Sequence record: NC_054928.1
DNA from: Escherichia phage vB_vPM_PD112
Length of the DNA stretch: 64,000 nt
Reading direction: 5' to 3' (one strand)
Shown here: positions 9,812 to 64,000 of the stretch, piece by piece
How positions within the stretch are numbered: the first letter of the stretch is position 1
How the letters are laid out: the number at the start of each line of letters is the position of its first letter
Notes under the pieces: model-generated
What the model saw: only the letters and a program-made list of their open reading frames with translations
What the model was told of the DNA's origin: nothing
Databases searched by the model: none
Position numbers and translations under genes: made by a program

Positions 9812-11294
9812 TTAAAAGTATTTTTTAAAACTCATCATAACTTTATCATCAACATCATTATCAATCTGTGCAACAAGGTAAGATGACAGTTCTACTTCTT
9901 GTGGCGCGGATTGAACATTATCAGAATTAAGATATTCACGAATCCAAGGATATGGGTGTTTAACCGGAGCATCGGTAATTGGGCATGGAAGACCACACTG
10001 TTTCATACGAGATACAGTTAAGTAATCAATAAAGCTCCACATGCTATTTGTATTTAATCCAGGAACATCGCCATCTTTAAATAAATGAACTGCCCAGTCT
10101 TTTTCTTGGCGGTTAACTTCCATGAAAATATCAACTGCTTCTTGTTCACACTCTTGAGCAATTTTAACCCATTCATCACCATCAGTGCCAAGTTGAAGTT
10201 GACGAATAATATATTGGGTGCCTTTAAGGTGAAGCTGCTCATCACGTGCAATGAACTTCATAATCTTGGCATTACCTTCCATGATTTCCATGTTCTTATG
10301 GAAGTTAAAGGTACCGTTATGTTCGATTGAGCTCGCTAATTCTCAACCCGTTCTCTTATGAACTGCTACATATTACTATGCAGACCAGACTATATCACAA
10401 TCCCAGAGGGATTCTCCCCATTTCGAGTCGCTTGACCCTACGTCCGAAGACTAGTCGTTGAACCTTGCTTTGCAATTGTGCATCCTCTTAAAAGTATAAT
10501 CATTTATATTATACTAATTAAAGGTGCAAGCAAAACCTTGGCTGCTAGTTTTCCTATAAAGGACTTTCCAGCAATTAAAGGAGTTTTCGATAAACGTTAC
10601 CGTTTAAAGGCGCATTTTACGCAAAAGATACATAAAAACGAATAGCTTCTAAGGCATTAATAACGTGCAAACAGAGGTAAAGAGATTTCATTAAAGCACG
10701 TTTAGCTTCGGCTTCTTGTTTAATAGCTCGGTTTAAACGAAAATCAGCATCAGGAGATTCTTTAGCTAGTTCTACAAATTCTTTAGCATTTTCCCATTCA
10801 CGGGTTTTAATAAGAACATCATCATAATAACGCCCAATGGATTCAGCACGTTTCATAATAGCTTCATCTAATACAATCTCATCAAATACCTTCGATGGAT
10901 CAGTATAAAGATTTCGCATGATATGTGTATATGAACGGCTGTGAATAGTTTCACTAAAAGTCCACGTAGCAACCCATGTATCAAGGCTTGGGTCTGAAAT
11001 TAATGACATAAGTACAGCAGACGGCGCACGACCCTGAATGCTATCCAAAAGTGATTGATACTTCAGATTATTAGTAAAAATATTTTGCTGATACTGAGGA
11101 AGCTTATTAAACTGTGCAGCATCCATCATTAAGTTTACTTCTTCAGGACGCCAGAAAAATGATAAGGACTTCTCTGTAAGTTCTTCAAATACCTTATGTC
11201 GTTGAATATCATAACGTGCAATTCCAAGACCTGAACCGAAGAACATAGGTTCTGTTAAAACATCAACTGGATTTGTATTAAAAACTGTGCTCAT
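9812..11294 (-). CDS. nrdB: ribonucleotide reductase small subunit, split by group I intron: exons 11294..10619 and 10314..9812
   Basis: Exon 1 ends FYVSFA, exon 2 carries MEGNAKI...SDNVQSAPQEVE; predicted junction restores a Cys aligning with E. coli NrdB FA-C-SFAF. Confidence 0.88.
10315..10618 (-). other. group I self-splicing intron in nrdB, ORF-less (about 304 nt)
   Basis: In-frame stop after exon 1; 5' splice site follows U, 3' end G; core similar to td intron (GACUCGAAA..., CAGACUAUAUC). Confidence 0.75.
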
Positions 11295-11345: not shown

Positions 11346-13610
11346 TCATAATTTACAGGATGAACAATCTTCAGCTTTTGGAGTTTCTATTTCATAATCA
11401 TCAGTACCAGAACCATCACGGGTATTATGATAATAGAAATTTTTAATGCCATAATACCATCCGTATAGCATGTCATCAATCATTATTGACATTGGAACCT
11501 TTCCTTTTGGAAAAATCTGCGGGTCATAGTAAGTATTAGCAGAAGCAGATTGGCACACCCATTTCAACATAATAGCTACCTGCGTAAGATAAGGTTTATT
11601 ACCTTTCTTAGCTAATTTCCATGTATAATCATATAGATCTATGTTATGTTCAATATTGGGCACGACTTGATTAAAGGAACCCTCTTTTGACTCTTTAACA
11701 GAGACTGGTCCACGTGGAGGCTCGATACCGTTTGTACTGTTAGAAACTTGGGAAGATGACTCACATGGCATAAGTGCTGATAATGTGCTATTACGGATGC
11801 CAAAGAGCTTAAGGTCTTCCCGCAGCGCCGACCAGTCACAAACGTATTTTGGAGCTGCGATTTGGTCAATCTTTTTATTGTACCAGTCGATAGGTAATTC
11901 GCCTCGAGACCAACGAGTGTCTGAATAATATTCGCAAGGTCCTTTTTCTTTGGCGAGCTTAATGGATGCTTTAATGAGCCCATACTGTAATCTCTCAAAT
12001 AGTTCATGTGTTAAATCGTTAGCATCTTCATAAGAAGCAAAGTTACTTGCCAGCCAAGCTGCATAGTTAGTAACACCTACGCCAAGGTTTCGACGCTTTT
12101 TAGCTTTTTCTGCTTCAGGAACTGGATATCCTTGGTAATCCAACAGATTATCAAGAGCACGAACTTGAACTTCTGCCAATTCATTAATTTTATCTTGGTC
12201 TTGCCAATCGAAGTTATCAAGAACAAAGGCAGAAAGAGTGCAGAGGCCCACTTCAGCGTCAGGTCCATTCACATCATTTGTTGGAATAGCAATTTCACAA
12301 CACAAGTTACTCTGGCGAATAGGCGCCTTTTCACGAATAAACGGAGTATAGTTATTCGTATTATCAATGAACTGCACATAAATCCTTGCTGTTCCTGAGC
12401 GTTCAGTCATGAGCAATTCAAATAGTTCACGGGCTTTAATACGCTTTTTACGAATATTAGGATCTTTTTCTGCCGCTTCGTATAATTCACGGAAACGGTC
12501 TTGGTCTTTAAAATAAGAATAATAAAGTTCGCCACCCATTTCATGCGGACTGAATAAAGTAATGTAATCGTTCTTTCCGAATCGTTCCATCATTAGGTCA
12601 TTCAGTTGAACGCCATAATCCATATGACGGATACGGTTTTCTTCTACACCTTTGTTATTTTTCAAAACGAGAAGATTTTCAACTTCCAAATGCCAAATAG
12701 GATAATAAGCAGTAGCAGCGCCGCCACGAATTCCACCCTGTGAGCATGATTTAACAGCAGTCTGAAAATGTTTCCAAAAAGGAATAACACCAGTATGACG
12801 CACTTCACCTGTGCCAATCTTAGAACCTTCGGCACGAATCATACCAACGTTAATGCCGATTCCAGCTCGTTTAGAAATATACTCAACAATTGAAGCAGAA
12901 GCCTTATTGATAGACTTCAGCGAATCACCTGCCTCAATAACAACGCATGAACTAAATTGCCGAGTTGGAGTACGACATCCAGCCATAATAGGAGTTGGCA
13001 ATGAAATCTGTCGAGTAGATACTGCTTCATAAAAACGAATAACATGTTTTAATCTGTCAACAGGTTCATCTTGATGCAATGCCATTCCAATAGTCATAAA
13101 TGCAAACTGTGGAGTTTCATAAATTTGACCAGTGGTTTTATCTTTAACGAGATATTTTTCTTTTAATTGCATCGCCCCGGAATAAGTAAATTCCATATCC
13201 CGCTCATGCTTAATTTTTGATTCTAAAAATGTAATTTCTTCTGCTGAATATTTTGACAGCAGTTCAGGGTCATATTTACCTTCATTTACACAGTAAGAAA
13301 TATGGTCAATAAATGAACGTGGTTCATACTGACCGTAAACATGCTTACGAAGAGCGAACATTAAACAGCGTGCAGCTACATATTGATAATCAGGCTCTTC
13401 AACTGAAATAGAATTCGCAGCAGCCTTAATGACAATAGTCTGAATGTCATCAGTTGTCATTCCATCACGGAGATATGATTTAATATTTTCATATAATTCA
13501 TAAGGATCTACAGATGTTCCTTCAGCTGCCCAAGATAAAACTTTAATAATTTTTTGCGGGTCAAAGCTTTGAGAAACACCACTACTTTTGATAACATTAA
13601 TTAATTGCAT
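11346..13610 (-). CDS. nrdA: ribonucleotide reductase large subunit
   Basis: 754 aa, class Ia RNR catalytic subunit; T4 NrdA size and position. Confidence 0.95.
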   Translation of the reverse strand: MQLINVIKSSGVSQSFDPQKIIKVLSWAAEGTSVDPYELYENIKSYLRDGMTTDDIQTIVIKAAANSISVEEPDYQYVAARCLMFALRKHVYGQYEPRSFIDHISYCVNEGKYDPELLSKYSAEEITFLESKIKHERDMEFTYSGAMQLKEKYLVKDKTTGQIYETPQFAFMTIGMALHQDEPVDRLKHVIRFYEAVSTRQISLPTPIMAGCRTPTRQFSSCVVIEAGDSLKSINKASASIVEYISKRAGIGINVGMIRAEGSKIGTGEVRHTGVIPFWKHFQTAVKSCSQGGIRGGAATAYYPIWHLEVENLLVLKNNKGVEENRIRHMDYGVQLNDLMMERFGKNDYITLFSPHEMGGELYYSYFKDQDRFRELYEAAEKDPNIRKKRIKARELFELLMTERSGTARIYVQFIDNTNNYTPFIREKAPIRQSNLCCEIAIPTNDVNGPDAEVGLCTLSAFVLDNFDWQDQDKINELAEVQVRALDNLLDYQGYPVPEAEKAKKRRNLGVGVTNYAAWLASNFASYEDANDLTHELFERLQYGLIKASIKLAKEKGPCEYYSDTRWSRGELPIDWYNKKIDQIAAPKYVCDWSALREDLKLFGIRNSTLSALMPCESSSQVSNSTNGIEPPRGPVSVKESKEGSFNQVVPNIEHNIDLYDYTWKLAKKGNKPYLTQVAIMLKWVCQSASANTYYDPQIFPKGKVPMSIMIDDMLYGWYYGIKNFYYHNTRDGSGTDDYEIETPKAEDCSSCKL

Positions 13611-14167: not shown

Positions 14168-15289
14168 TTACACTGCCATTTTTCCTTTAATAGGAGGGTG
14201 TGATTCATAACCTTTAAGAACGAAATCTTTAGGCCTGAGTTTAAGAACATATTTTAATTGTTCTTTAGTAGAAAGATAGCGGAATTTATAAGGTAGACCA
14301 CTTATTACCAGTTCACAAAGCTCTTTAGGTTCACGACGTAAAATTTCTTTACACTGTTCTACGTGATTCATATAGATATGAGTATTACCACCAGAAAATA
14401 TCAAATCTCCTGGAATAAGATTACACATCTTAGCTACAATATGAACTAACGCAGCATATGATGCAATATTAAATGGAAGCATTATGTTCAGATAAGGTCG
14501 TTAATCTTATCCCGGAATTATATCCAGCTGCATGTCACCATGCAGAGCAGACTATATCTCCAACTTGCTAAAGCAAGTTGTCTATCGTTTCGAGTCACTT
14601 GACCCTACTCCCTAAAGGGATAGTCGTTAGGCATTTATGTAGAACCAAAGTCCTACAATTTAGCACGGGATTGTCTACTAGAGAGGTTCCCCGTTTAGAT
14701 AGATTACAAGTATAAGTCACCTTATACTCAGGCCTAAATTAACCCAAGAAAACATCTACAGAACGTTGATACCACTGCAAATCCAAATAGCCATTACGCA
14801 CATTAAACTGATAGAACATGTGACAAGGCGGTAATGCCATTTGCTTAAGTTCAGCTGGATTCCATGCAGAAACAATTTGACGCCTATCATTCGGCAGTTT
14901 TTTAATACGATCAATAACTTCTATAATTTGGTCTACACCGCCAAAATCACGCCATTGTTTTCCATAAATTGGACCAAGTTCACCGCTATGATATCCTAAA
15001 TCTTTTGCTTGATTTTCGTAATTTTCATCCCAGACTGTTTTGCCTTGAATTAATGAATTATGTTGAATTAATCGCAAATCATTTACGTTAGTACTTCCTG
15101 ATAAGAACCACAATAACTCAGAAATACATGCATTCCAGGCGAGCTTCTTAGTCGTTACTGCAGGAAAACCTTTAGTTAAATCCCAACGTAATTTAGTACC
15201 GAACAAAGCAATTGTTCCTGTGCCTGTTCGGTCATCGGTTTCATAACCGTTTTCCAGGATATCTTTAATTAAAAATTGGTATTGTTTCA

Positions 15290-15290
<1 letters not shown>
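14168..15290 (-). CDS. td: thymidylate synthase, split by group I intron: exons 15290..14742 and 14479..14168 (286 aa spliced)
   Basis: Exon 1 ends VDVFLG, exon 2 begins LPFNIASYA; spliced product matches recalled T4 TS; start MKQYQ at 15290. Confidence 0.92.
14480..14741 (-). other. group I self-splicing intron in td, ORF-less (262 nt; no I-TevI-like ORF)
   Basis: Begins UAAUUUAGGCCUGAGUAUAAGGUGACUUAUACUUG, ends CUUAUCUGAACAUAAUG; matches recalled T4 td intron core. Confidence 0.85.
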
Positions 15291-16322
<1,032 letters not shown>

Positions 16323-41931: not shown

Positions 41932-42135
41932 TTAATTCATATTGCGTTTAATAACTTCAACAACTTCTAGTAGTTCATCTTTAGTTGCGGTGTCGGATTG
42001 AATTTTATCTCTAATATCCTTAAAGCGGTTTTTAAACTCTTCAGCTTCTCCCATATCGAAAAAGCGTTGAATGATTCTATATTCTCGATGAACTGCTTTA
42101 TCAAAAAGTTCTAAATTTACTTTGTATGATTTCAT
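41932..42135 (-). CDS. hypothetical protein (rIIA.1 position)
   Basis: ORF track, 67 aa. Confidence 0.5.
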
Positions 42136-42158
42136 TTCAATATCCTCATTTGCTCAAT

Positions 42159-42191
42159 TAATTATACCACATCCTTGTGGTAAAGTAAACT
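42159..42191 (-). promoter_or_regulatory. T4 early-type promoter
   Basis: gtaaac 42185-42190 and attata 42161-42166 on plus strand. Confidence 0.5.
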
Positions 42192-42192
42192 A

Positions 42193-42722
42193 CTGGCTCA
42201 TCCATTCTTTACGAAGGTCAGCATTATCTCCCATGAGCATTTCAAAAAGCTCTTTCCAATTCTCAGGAAGTTTAACAACATCATATACTGGGTTTTGAAT
42301 CATCTCACGATATTCAGATTTTTCCAAAGAGCCAAGTCCCTTAATATAACGGATGCTATGTTTAGGTAGAGCATCTTTGGCACTCTCATATTCAGCGACT
42401 GTATAAAACCATTCTTGTTTTTTGCCGACCTGAGCGATGATTACAGGAGTTTTGACAAAGCGAATTCTTCCTTGTTCAAACAGTTCTGGCCAATTACTAA
42501 AAAATCCGAGCAGAGAAGGATAAATAGAACCTAATCCAATAATCTCTTAATTATGAGGTATTTCTATAGATAGCCCGAAGGCTATCCATCGTGATCTGCG
42601 TCTGTCATAATAGCGACATTCGCATAGTTCATTGAAGAGGATTTAATAGAACGACGAACATTGTTCTGCAATTTATATTTTTTCATATCAACGCTAGAAG
42701 AATCAATTTTTACAAATTTCAT
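42193..42722 (-). CDS. 60: DNA topoisomerase II small subunit gp60; two coding segments 42722..42585 and 42534..42193 joined by translational bypass
   Basis: Segment 1 MKFVKIDSS...MTDADHDG ends GGA-UAG; segment 2 LGSIYPSLLGFFSNWPEL... resumes after landing GGA; 160 aa total as in T4. Confidence 0.9.
42535..42584 (-). other. gene 60 50-nt translational bypass (hop) element
   Basis: UAG stop after take-off GGA, hairpin UAGCCUUCGGGCUA, landing GGA at 42535-42537. Confidence 0.9.
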
Positions 42723-43521
42723 TATACACCTCATAGAACTTTTCATCAGGAATCCAACCGCGTTTAAATTCATTAAATGCTCGGCCGAATAATTTTGAAT
42801 TCACAGTTATATTATTAACTGATTTCCATTTAGCAACTCCTGTTCGTTTATAATGATCGGGGTCATATTTCGTGACGTACCATTCATATAAATTTGGTAT
42901 TAATTTTACAGCCTCTGGATTTGTCGCTGATTTATTATACCATGGTTTCGCTTTTTCAAGTTCAGCTGCTTTTGCAGTAGCAGCAACAGTATTTCCAATA
43001 CCAACTAATTTTTCAGCTTTAATGCGTGGATCATTAACATGAAGACGAAAAACTTCGCCCTTTTCATTTTTAAAGCATGTCATGCCTTTAATTCCAGGAA
43101 GCTTAACACCTTTATTAACACCACACCATTCCTTTGGGTTAAATGATCCTTTAATTAATAAGGCGCATTTACCCGATTTAATACTTCTCATTAAAACTTT
43201 ATCTTTCATAAAGTTTTTTGACCATTCAGATACTGCTCTTTGATGGTAAATTCTAGCAATTTCATATAATTTACTAGAACGTAAATATTTTTCAGTGTTT
43301 AACATTCTATTCATCGCATATGCCATTTCACGATTACGATGAATTTTATATAGTAGAAAATGTGCTAAAAAGTGTTCACGAAAAGTCAGTTTCACCAAAT
43401 TTTCTTTATCATCAGAACCTCCCATTGATCTTGGAAGGATATGATGAATTTCACCCTTAAATTTAGAAACGCGGGTTTTACCCCGCACTATTAAGTCATT
43501 ATAGATTTTTTCGTAATTCAC
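42703..43521 (-). mobile_element. mobA: HNH homing endonuclease (MobA-like) between genes 39 and 60
   Basis: 272 aa with HNH motif GEIHHILPRSMGGSDDKENLVKLTFREHFLAH. Confidence 0.8.
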
Positions 43522-45049
43522 CTACTGTTATCCATTTACCATTAATCTGTACTTCATCATTTTCATTTACGATAATTGTATCGCCATTTAGTTCGAAAGT
43601 AAACCACTCGCCATCTTCTTTTTCTTCAAACGCCTTTTCACCAAGAACTAATCCAGTGATTGCGCAAATATCAAATAGTTCTTTGTTTTTAAGCATATCG
43701 GCATATGACATACCCCAGCTATTAAGAACTTTACCGCGCAATGGATAACCACCATGAAGTTCTTTATCACGAACATCAATAAGATATCCAATAGCAGAAT
43801 CACCCTCAGTCAAGAAAAGAGTAGTATCAGCATCTTTACCACAAAGATTCGCTTTGATATGTTTATGAACCTTAGCTTTAGAAGCCTTTTTAGCTGCTTT
43901 AGTTTCTGCTGCTTTTTCTGCCGCCAATTTACGAGCCAAAGCAGCTTCGATAATCGGCATTAGAATTGCTTCATTATTTAGAATAGCGCGTGAAATCTTT
44001 TTAGCATCAAGCTGAATATGACTACGAATTTCACCAAAAGGAGAAGTAAGTCGTTCTTTAGTTTGAGAATCAAATCGCATGTTTTTCATATCACGGACAA
44101 ACATAACGATAGTCAAACATTCTTTGACACGTGCTTTAGTTACATCAATTTTGAATTTACGTTTGATTTGTGGAATAAGGTCTTCACAAATATCATCCAT
44201 AACACAATCAATGTGATGGCCACCATTCTTAGTATGAATGTTATTCACATAAGTTAATTGACGAAAACCATCCGGTGAACGACCAACAGCAATAGAACAA
44301 TTTTCTTGTTCTTGAACGATAGCATGTTCATCATACTGTCGTGCATATTTCTTAAAATTACCCTGAACCTTTTTACCATTAAAGGTAAATTGAATATCAG
44401 GATAAACTACTGCAAGTGTCTGGAGACGATCCAGTGTAATGTCAAGATAAACTTGAGATAGCTCATTAGTTTCAAATGACATAAAATCAGGAATGAAAGT
44501 AACGCGAGTTCCTTTCCATTTTCCAGGAATAGTTTCCCAGGATTTATTTTCCATGCCATTTGAACAACGAACTACAATATTATTTTGACCATCGCCGGTT
44601 TCACCGACAAACATCACAGAAAAAATATTAGTTAAACTAGAACCAACACCATTCATACCACCAGTGACGCGTTCTTTATCATCACCGAAGTTACCACCTG
44701 CTTTTGGAATAGTCCATGCAGCAACTGGACCAGGAATTTCTTCACCGGTAGGTGTTTTAACCATCGCCTGTGGAATACCGCGACCGTTATCTTCAACTGT
44801 TACTTGATTGTTTTTAATAGTAACATTAATTTTATTTGCGAATTTAAACTTAGTACGAATACCTTCATCTACTGAGTTATCGATAATTTCATCAATAAGC
44901 TTAACAAGACCAGGTACATACTGAACACTTTCCCATTTACCAAACAGAAAGCGCTCATGCATTTCATTAGCTGAAGAGCCAATGTACATGCCGCTACGCT
45001 TTTTGATATGTTCAATATCGCTCAGAATTTTAATTTCATTCTTAATCAT
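43499..45049 (-). CDS. 39: DNA topoisomerase II large subunit gp39 (GyrB-like ATPase part)
   Basis: 516 aa from MIKNEIKIL; ATPase motifs; T4 gp39 size. Confidence 0.93.
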   Translation of the reverse strand: MIKNEIKILSDIEHIKKRSGMYIGSSANEMHERFLFGKWESVQYVPGLVKLIDEIIDNSVDEGIRTKFKFANKINVTIKNNQVTVEDNGRGIPQAMVKTPTGEEIPGPVAAWTIPKAGGNFGDDKERVTGGMNGVGSSLTNIFSVMFVGETGDGQNNIVVRCSNGMENKSWETIPGKWKGTRVTFIPDFMSFETNELSQVYLDITLDRLQTLAVVYPDIQFTFNGKKVQGNFKKYARQYDEHAIVQEQENCSIAVGRSPDGFRQLTYVNNIHTKNGGHHIDCVMDDICEDLIPQIKRKFKIDVTKARVKECLTIVMFVRDMKNMRFDSQTKERLTSPFGEIRSHIQLDAKKISRAILNNEAILMPIIEAALARKLAAEKAAETKAAKKASKAKVHKHIKANLCGKDADTTLFLTEGDSAIGYLIDVRDKELHGGYPLRGKVLNSWGMSYADMLKNKELFDICAITGLVLGEKAFEEKEDGEWFTFELNGDTIIVNENDEVQINGKWITVGELRKNL

Positions 45050-45118
45050 CACTTATCCTCGTTTGGTTTCGGGAATATTATACTCCAATAATCATAAAGC
45101 TAAAGGCCCGAAGGCCTT

Positions 45119-61616: not shown

Positions 61617-61979
61617 TTAAAAGAATTTAAATTTTTTCTTTGACCTTTTATTAAATGCATCTTGTAGTTGCATTGTAATACATTTTTCTACATGAGGAGC
61701 TAACTCAGCTTTTCTTTCTTGGTCAAGAACAGCAAAGTCCATTACGACTTTTCCATCAACCCAATCTAATTTTGTCACATACACAATGTGTGTAGAACCA
61801 TCTTCTAGTTTAATGACAATCTCCTGGATAACATTTTCCATGGCAGATTTAATTATCTTAAGAGATTCATTAAAAAGACGTTCTTTTCTTTCTTCTTCCC
61901 CCTCCGAAGAGGGGGATTCATCGATAATTTCTAGATCTAAATCTAAATCATCTTTATTCATTAAATTCTTCCATATCAC
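61617..61979 (-). CDS. 40: head vertex assembly chaperone gp40
   Basis: 120 aa; position between 41 and uvsX. Confidence 0.6.
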   Translation of the reverse strand: MIWKNLMNKDDLDLDLEIIDESPSSEGEEERKERLFNESLKIIKSAMENVIQEIVIKLEDGSTHIVYVTKLDWVDGKVVMDFAVLDQERKAELAPHVEKCITMQLQDAFNKRSKKKFKFF

Positions 61980-63129
61980 TTAACTGTTCGAGGTCAGTTT
62001 CTAAATCAGCAGCTGATTTACTTTTACTTTCTGGAGATTTAAATTTTTCAACCTTTGAGTTAATCAATTCATCAACTTCAGCTTCAACAATTTCATTACT
62101 ATCAATAGCACCTAACTGATAAGCACGTTTAATAGCATCTCGGAATGGTTGATGCTTAAATAAAGGACCCCAGAATGTAGTGCAGTTGGTATCTTTTGCA
62201 CGCCAAGATTTTTCTTCGCGAATCATCTCACCGGTTTCTTCATCAAGAAATTCACGAGCATACCAGCCATTTTTAGGTTTTACCACGAATCCTAATTCTA
62301 GAGCCATATCTAACAATCCAGAATAAGGATCGATACCACCATCAAATTTAACATCAATAAAGAATTTACTTTTTTCTTTAACGGTACGAGATTTTTCTAC
62401 ATTTAGAACAAATTGATACCCCTGAAGATCAGAACCATCTTTAATCTGACGCTTACCGATAATGAATACAGTATCAGCCGAATACATCGGTCCAGTCCCG
62501 CCTCCCATAACGGTTTTACTAAACATTTCTTGTGTTTCGTATGTATGGTTAATAGCAATACATGGAATATTTTTAGTACTAAAATAGGGAGTTACGATAC
62601 GAAATAAGCTTTTCATTGTTTTAGCTCTAGTCATATCACTAACAACTTTTTCATTTAAAGCATCTTCAGTTTCTTTCTTAGAAGCTAAGTTACCAAGCGA
62701 ATCAATAAAAACGACTACCTTTTCACCACGTTCAATTGCATCCAATTGATTAACCATATCAATACGTAATTGCTCAAGTGATTGAACCGGAGTATGAATT
62801 ACTCGTTCTGGATCAACCCCCATGGATCGCAAATAAGCTGGAGTGATACCAAATTCGCTGTCATAAAACAAACATACTGCGTCAGGATATTGCCGCATGT
62901 AAGATGACACCATTGTTAATCCAAAGTTTGATTTAAATGATTTTGATGGACCTGCCAAAATTAACAGACCAGATTGCATACCACCAGTAATTTCACCAGA
63001 AAGCGCAATATTCATCATAGGAATTTTTGTTCGAACTACATCTTTTTCATTAAAGAATTTAGATGTAGTCAGTTCAGCGGTCAATTTAGAAGTAGAAGCT
63101 TTAATCAAACGAGATTTTAAATCAGACAT
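61954..63129 (-). CDS. uvsX: UvsX recombinase (RecA-like)
   Basis: 391 aa; matches recalled T4 UvsX. Confidence 0.95.
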   Translation of the reverse strand: MSDLKSRLIKASTSKLTAELTTSKFFNEKDVVRTKIPMMNIALSGEITGGMQSGLLILAGPSKSFKSNFGLTMVSSYMRQYPDAVCLFYDSEFGITPAYLRSMGVDPERVIHTPVQSLEQLRIDMVNQLDAIERGEKVVVFIDSLGNLASKKETEDALNEKVVSDMTRAKTMKSLFRIVTPYFSTKNIPCIAINHTYETQEMFSKTVMGGGTGPMYSADTVFIIGKRQIKDGSDLQGYQFVLNVEKSRTVKEKSKFFIDVKFDGGIDPYSGLLDMALELGFVVKPKNGWYAREFLDEETGEMIREEKSWRAKDTNCTTFWGPLFKHQPFRDAIKRAYQLGAIDSNEIVEAEVDELINSKVEKFKSPESKSKSAADLETDLEQLSDMEEFNE

Positions 63130-63137
63130 ATAATACC

Positions 63138-63803
63138 TTATAATAGTGTTCTTGTTCCACGAAATACTTCGAGCATTCTTGCATAAGATTTATTTGGAAA
63201 TCCAGCCTCAATTGCTAATTTTTTAAGCTTAATAGCACCGGGTTTTCCAGAGTTTTCCCATATTTCTTTAATCTTTTCAATGTTACCCCACATTATTGGG
63301 TCACGTTTATGTGATGGTTTATTTCTATTATAACCATATGGATTATTAAGCAAAGCTTCTTTTCGTCTTGCTTTAGTTTCTTCTGACTGCTTTTTGCCTA
63401 GCTGGACTTTCCGGCAAACATCACTAAATCCAAGATGTTTTGGTTTTCCTTTTTGAGCTTTCGAAATTTTTTCTTTAGTTTCTGATGAAACTCTATAACC
63501 AATTCTTCTACCACCCTCTCCGCCAATTTTTAAATTATAGGTCATAGGATCATTTACAACATCTATTGTTACTAATTCTCTTTCAGCATCCCGGGCTGAT
63601 TTAAAATCTTTATAAAACCCAAGAATGCTTAAATTAAAATTTTTCTTACCATACTTTTTCTTGGCTTGTGCTAATAAAGTTCCTGACCCCAGATAACCAT
63701 CATTTAAGTCATCGGTTGAATGAGTTCCGTAGTAAATTTTATTATTAACTAAATTAGTTATAACATAAGTATAATTATATTTCTTTTCTTTGTGTCTTTT
63801 CAT
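63138..63803 (-). mobile_element. segA: GIY-YIG homing endonuclease SegA-like
   Basis: 221 aa from ATG at 63803 (track start is TTG-extended); GIY-YIG motif YTYVITN...KIYYGTHS. Confidence 0.8.
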
Positions 63804-63807
63804 GTCA

Positions 63808-64000
63808 TTAATCAACTGCTATTGGATGAATAGCATTAAACTTATGAAACGCTTCTGATTTTTCTTTGCGCGAAACACACATGCGAAGAACCTTTAATGG
63901 CTCGTCTTCTTCACCCAACGATTTTCGTTTTTCAATATTAGAAGTTTTCCAACGAGCTTGCTCTGGAAATTCTCTATTGATTTGCTCGAGAGCTCTATTA
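63808..64000 (-). CDS. partial CDS, C-terminal end of upstream gene (possibly bgt by synteny)
   Basis: Open frame on minus strand ending ...FHKFNAIHPIAVD stop at 63808-63810. Confidence 0.3.
   Translation of the reverse strand, partial: NRALEQINREFPEQARWKTSNIEKRKSLGEEDEPLKVLRMCVSRKEKSEAFHKFNAIHPIAVD

Follow-up and report, generated by a model that had tools for sequence, protein, structure and literature searches.

The account of the T4 MobA and gene 60 bypass cassette is reportedly that of Bonocora, Zeng, Abel and Shub (PNAS 2011). According to secondary accounts of the system, MobA nicks its target and is inherited at high frequency in mixed infections; these accounts add that polymorphisms in homR do not by themselves stop nicking, and that the bypass, which lies ~20 nt downstream, does. 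The T4-type element is classified as "clade 1" by Manning & Atkins (bioRxiv 2022), who describe MobA elements of 1097-1106 nt with 55-75 nt deleted, a C-terminal extension of ~44 aa, an N-terminal extension of 44-45 aa and a homR DNA identity of 67-81%; the E. coli clade carries 9 more element nucleotides past the bypass. In the literature on T4, mobA and gene 39 are likewise given a 23-nt overlap, and mobA is the single free-standing endonuclease gene of that phage predicted to begin at GUG. The products gp39, gp60 and gp52 together make an active topoisomerase, in which the inserted tails lie outside Toprim and probably aid assembly (Nat Commun 2024).

Several further systems bear comparison with the locus described here, which lies in a 64,000-nucleotide stretch of Escherichia phage vB_vPM_PD112 (NC_054928.1), hereafter the window. 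Salmonella phage S16 (Gelderlandvirus) and Acinetobacter phages Stupor and KARL-1 carry a homologous endonuclease, 48-58% identical, between split topoisomerase halves, together with small gp60 pieces that imply a bypass; they are diverged, however, and are described in the literature as independent insertions with other take-off and landing codons. T4 MobE, encoded between nrdA and nrdB, is also a free-standing HNH nicking endonuclease of the Mob group, but has another target and is not accompanied by a bypass element. The split nrdA of Aeromonas phage Aeh1 offers a parallel in which an insertion splits an essential gene and adds tails. I-HmuI and I-HmuII of Bacillus phages share the zinc-less HNH motif (structure 1U3E), with single-strand nicking as their reported chemistry, but they are intron-encoded and gave no significant sequence or fold match with MobA.

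Position and identity of the open reading frame

The initial annotation had noted a 272-aa HNH protein lying between gp39, the GyrB-like ATPase part, and gp60, the GyrB-like C-terminal part, and overlapping both, and had likened this arrangement to that of T4 mobA. All of this holds. The open reading frame (Table 1) shares 23 nt (43499-43521) with gene 39 and 20 nt with gene 60, whose ATG is at 42722, so that 43 of its 819 nt overlap with one neighbour or the other. Gene 39 occupies 43499..45049 (-) when begun at the ATG annotated in Escherichia phage T4T, and its open frame reaches a GTG at 45052. The gp39 sequence matches the Pfam families HATPase_c (E = 1.3e-9) and DNA_gyraseB (E = 1.2e-13), and for the gene 60 product the hits are TOPRIM_C (E = 3.3e-8) and the weaker DNA_gyraseB_C and Toprim. 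Of the topoisomerase II large subunit, the host-derived part of gene 39 encodes the GHKL ATPase, the GyrB transducer and the opening half of Toprim; gene 60 beyond the landing site, where the first 9 nt (42526-42534) are element-derived, encodes the remaining half of Toprim together with the C-terminal region of GyrB.

Table 1. Features of the mobA locus in the window, with the evidence for each
Feature	Position	Strand	Evidence and remarks
Whole MobA element, ~1109 nt replacing 67 nt of uninterrupted gene 39	42526..43634	-	T2 BLAST and boundary alignments
Gene 39, host-derived part, codons 1 to ~472	43635..45049	-	T2 collinearity; Pfam; T4T annotation as gene 39
gp39 C-terminal extension, 43 aa (FEEKEDGEWF...GELRKNL) + stop	43499..43630	-	Frame other than that of mobA
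mobA, free-standing HNH homing endonuclease	42703..43521	-	272 aa, GTG start; ORF, T4T match, PHROG 655
Gene 60, codons 1-46	42585..42722	-	~30 aa new N-terminal extension + ~16 aa homR
50-nt translational bypass ("hop")	42535..42584	-	Sequence; coordinates match T4T misc_feature
Gene 60 after landing, 114 codons + stop	42190..42534	-	T2 match; Pfam TOPRIM_C, DNA_gyraseB_C

The first codon of mobA is directly preceded by an in-frame TAG, and the earliest ATG in the frame, M33, already lies past the first two motif histidines; the GTG is therefore the sole start that gives a whole HNH domain. At the local base composition, the probability that 272 codons stay open by chance is ~2e-10. When the region was scanned for promoters and terminators, promoter-like sites were rarer than in shuffled sequence and zero terminators were found, a result that is consistent with a promoter-less cassette and from which we draw nothing further. 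The absence of an evident promoter of its own and the position of the GTG inside the end of gene 39 suggest that mobA may be translated at a low level, coupled to gene 39.

Over 3 kb (42100-45100), the window shows 100% identity to Escherichia phage vB_EcoM_CE1; for several T4 records the figure is 97.5%. The T4T record annotates the same ORF as "mobA, homing endonuclease, H-N-H family", between gene 60 and gene 39, and gives gene 60 as a join across the 50-nt bypass. In the CE1 record, the ORF is a "hypothetical protein" and gene 60 appears as two fragments. Over its whole length the window aligns to CE1 in blocks of 96.4-99.3% identity, with indels, and exact identity is limited to 42100-45100; on these alignments, the pattern is ordinary T-even mosaicism. 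The ORF is the T4-type mobA of a Tequatrovirus, intact and with its bypass cassette, an ordinary instance of a system that is already known and published. It agrees with the T4 cassette in insertion site, gene order, both overlaps, the GTG start, the 50-nt GGA/UAG/GGA bypass, the UUCG stem-loop and the 9 extra nucleotides after the landing codon, and differs from it in the substitution A169T, in two synonymous changes and in a gene 39 flank that is 95.8% identical and nearer to that of mobA-less phages.

The element compared with an uninterrupted gene 39

The edges of the element were set by BLAST and boundary alignments of the 39-mobA-60 stretch against gene 39 of phage T2, a single gene of 1818 nt that encodes 605 aa. 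Two collinear blocks were obtained, the first between window positions 45049-43635 and T2 nucleotides 1-1415 (96.3% identity) and the second between positions 42525-42190 and nucleotides 1483-1818 (97.6% identity). The 5' edge of the element is ambiguous by ~4 nt (~43630-43634). At the other edge, matches to mobA-less phages end 9 nt before the landing codon is reached, and the 9 nt beyond the landing codon differ from T2 as well.

At the protein level, gp39 tracks T2 gp39 through residue 473 and then runs into a 43-aa tail that has no T2 counterpart; this tail corresponds to the "CTE" of Manning & Atkins (bioRxiv 2022). T2 gp39 residues ~477-605 align with gp60. The two halves, with the bypass skipped from GGA to GGA, together rebuild a T2-type protein. 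The split point falls inside the Toprim metal-binding motif, with TEGDSA kept in gp39 and IMTDADHDG in gp60. The homR segment, NYANVAIMTDADHDG, ends at the take-off codon GGA (42585-42587) and aligns with NYHNIAIMTDADHDG of T2 (gp39 residues 477-491), while its DNA is only ~72% identical to the replaced T2 target. By this alignment homR reads as an element-borne, diverged copy of the deleted target. As far as the alignments go, the element is in point-by-point agreement with the MobA element of Manning & Atkins in size and layout. The comparison with an uninterrupted gene 39 had been proposed in the initial annotation, along with the idea that insertion of a homing endonuclease gene split an ancestral single gene. 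The T2 protein proves collinear with gp39 and then gp60, and the replacement of 67 nt of a T2-type gene by an element of ~1.1 kb supports that idea.

The translational bypass in gene 60

The bypass belongs to the mobA cassette and was absent from the initial annotation. The message reads GAU GGA UAG CCUUCGGGCUAUCU...GAGAUUAUU GGA UUA, with the take-off GGA at 42587-42585, the UAG at 42584-42582 and the landing GGA at 42537-42535. A take-off stem-loop with a UUCG loop (42566-42589) and a 5' stem-loop (42597-42624) are both held in the predicted minimum free energy fold, and the fold of the region has a z-score of -3.3 against shuffles. When the 50 nucleotides are skipped, a 160-aa gp60 collinear with T2 results; collinearity fails unless they are skipped. 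The stretch 42526-42722 is 100% identical to T4T. In an Rfam scan of 42100-43700 at E <= 1, no family matched the bypass. In the available accounts of the literature, the bypass is the immunity determinant of the cassette.

The endonuclease

The MobA protein is identical to T4T MobA at 271 of 272 residues, the one difference, A169T, falling outside the HNH motif; the mobA DNA is 99.6% identical to that of several T4 records. Over residues 1-265 the protein matches PHROG 655 ("homing endonuclease") with E = 2.5e-57. The motif, EIHHILPRSMGGSDDKENLVKLTFREH, contains H26, H27, N41, H50 and H54. Two other HNH motifs, those of Cas8f-HNH and of a group II intron maturase (6me0), line up with it residue for residue. 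By this alignment, H27 would act as the general base, N41 as the structural asparagine, and H50 or H54 as a metal ligand.

In a search of ~5.8 billion proteins, ten full-length relatives were found with 48-99% identity. In many further proteins the likeness is confined to the N-terminal ~90 residues, often together with NUMOD3 or NUMOD1. Among full-length relatives, including those at 29-58% identity, no change is seen at N41, H50 or H54, and almost none at H26 and H27, where a single N-terminally truncated entry is the exception. The pattern extends to 120 wider homologues: in 121 sequences, G35, N41, H50, H54 and L57 never vary, and H26 and H27 reach at least 90% conservation. The match of MobA itself to the Pfam HNH model (PF01844) covers residues 24-43 only and scores 20.1 bits against a gathering cut-off of 21.4 (E = 7e-4). 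Ten of 12 family members match Pfam HNH at E <= 0.01 (best 5.9e-5). The HNH assignment stands, though on PHROG 655 and the conserved motif as well as on Pfam. Among the NCBIfam models, just a sub-threshold IscB HNH match was seen, and searches of solved structures by sequence gave short HNH-motif matches only (best E = 0.0095). The AF2 model of MobA has a mean pLDDT of 87 and a pTM of 0.44, its domains not being fixed relative to each other, and among solved HNH homing endonucleases, fold searches with this model brought up none that matched significantly. For residues 60-112 a Pfam Gp6_C-III assignment (19.8 bits, with a cut-off of 27) was rejected as both sub-threshold and implausible. In comparison with the mobA of S16, pN is 0.28 and pS is 0.75; synonymous sites are saturated at this distance, so that only pN < pS can be stated.

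The initial annotation had named loss of the HNH catalytic residues in an alignment as the sign of a decayed remnant; the alignment finds all five in place. It had also held that activity is not determinable from the sequence, which is too cautious for a protein one residue away from T4T MobA, given that MobA reportedly nicks its target. It is conceivable, if only remotely so, that A169T changes activity or specificity.

In many T-even phages, among them RB3, T6 and slur11, the 3' end of mobE shares ~70% DNA identity with the last part of mobA (nucleotides 641-818, window 42704-42881); one record labels this stretch NUMOD3. This suggests a C-terminal module that may be common to Mob endonucleases. 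A tblastn search of the window with MobA found no paralogue.

Traces of mobility and distribution

The element differs from that of T4T at 5 of 1109 nt (99.55% identity), whereas the adjoining host part of gene 39 differs at 60 of 1415 nt (95.76% identity; Fisher p = 1.4e-10 for element against flank). For rIIA, there are 49 differences to T4T in 1322 nt (96.3% identity). The drop in identity to T4T comes only a few bases from the 5' edge of the element and ~45 nt past its 3' edge. Next to CE1, the most similar gene 39 flank is that of vB_EcoM_IME537 (98.4%), which is without mobA, its only match to the gene being a mobE-like 22% stretch. At >=95% identity, mobA is present in ~41 of ~500 records that carry the flanking topoisomerase sequence (~8%).

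Homing would be expected to leave a near-identical element in diverged backgrounds and a patchy distribution, and we take this pattern as indirect evidence of homing. Constraint from overlapping reading frames, three in all, could in part explain the identity of the element in place of recent transfer, but this argument is limited, as the overlaps span just 43 nt of mobA. We give about even chances to the reading that this lineage recently got the cassette from a T4-like donor, through natural homing into a background that was without mobA and with very short co-conversion tracts. Were it true, the locus would be a natural junction map of a MobA homing event.

Discussion

The comparisons above make it very probable that the ORF is the mobA of a T4-type MobA element, a selfish cassette of ~1.1 kb that sits within the Toprim-coding part of the gene for the topoisomerase II large subunit. 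This cassette brings with it a 43-aa tail for gp39, mobA in a different frame, a new start and N-terminus (homR included) for gp60, and the 50-nt bypass. Following the literature, MobA would act in mixed infections by nicking one strand of an uninterrupted allele in the region equivalent to homR, and recombinational repair off the mobA-bearing genome would copy the cassette in. The bypass lies ~20 nt from where the nick falls and is described as breaking the recognition site, and because of this the carrier should be immune to its own nuclease. The hop of the ribosome would keep gp60 functional, and the tails would help both halves assemble with gp52.

An intact frame might nevertheless encode a dead or domesticated protein, a remnant kept by its overlap with genes 39 and 60 in a cassette that no longer moves. 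Progressive loss of the endonuclease with retention of the bypass has been described for some lineages (Manning & Atkins), and mobA is without its own promoter and begins at GTG, both of which would suit such a remnant. Yet the frame is full-length and has every HNH residue, an overlap of 43 of 819 nt cannot preserve 272 codons, and the step in identity at the edge of the element argues for recent transfer. A precedent would seem to be T4 itself, where AF158101.6 and NC_000866 annotate mobA as a pseudogene, with an ORF 60.1 in the place of the one open frame seen here. That pseudogene, however, comes down to 11 extra single bases in AF158101, which fall within ~230 nt; the compared parts are positions 904-1733 of the AF158101.6 stretch and window 42703-43521. 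Because T4T and the window are without these 11 bases, and the full 819 nt align without a gap to other T4 records, we infer that the T4 pseudogene and the split that gives ORF 60.1 are a legacy sequencing error and not decay. It looks as though this error was carried into NC_000866 and into statements that T4 mobA has decayed. With these points taken together, we consider a dead or domesticated mobA quite unlikely.

A different history would have the split between genes 39 and 60 as the ancestral state, with the single gene 39 of T2 arising by fusion and mobA settling in an old intergenic space. The introduction of the Nat Commun 2024 paper does leave "gene-fusion or gene-separation" open. 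Against an ancestral split stands the fact that the single gene is the majority form, in ~92% of related records, as well as the general form of type IIA enzymes. The break lies inside the Toprim metal-binding motif, the tails of gp39 and gp60 have no counterpart in T2, and homR is a diverged duplicate of the missing 67 nt. All of these are awkward for a fusion, as is an element that is near-identical across diverged backgrounds, and independent insertions are reported in six phage clades (Manning & Atkins, bioRxiv 2022). We find this history hardly credible, and keep to insertion of a mobA cassette into a single topoisomerase gene.

Established knowledge is not changed by this locus, and the worth of the analysis lies in the right annotation of the stretch. 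The ORF at 42703-43521 deserves the name mobA rather than the "hypothetical protein" of CE1, and gene 60 should be annotated as a join over the 50-nt bypass, not as two fragments. The phage is one more natural carrier, in a non-T4 background, of the model element for programmed translational bypassing. The MobA element is also a model for how homing can target an essential gene when neither an intron nor an intein is involved.

Other candidate mobile elements in the window

Two group I introns (Rfam RF00028), of ~220-270 nt each, were found on the minus strand. One (14528-14751, 73.8 bits) lies between the td ORFs 14739..15302 and 14168..14482, the other (10366-10635, 68.6 bits) between the nrdB ORFs 10617..11294 and 9812..10291. 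Because both are too short to hold I-TevI or I-TevIII, both T4 introns seem to be present in this phage in a form without an ORF. Between nrdA (11346..13610) and exon 1 of nrdB, which ends at 11294, there are 51 nt; mobE is therefore absent in the window. A 225-aa ORF with a GIY-YIG-like N-terminus (YVITN...IYYGTH) is found at 63138-63815 (-), adjoining uvsX (61954..63129). Its position is that of segA in T4, and its counterpart in CE1 is labelled as a homing endonuclease.
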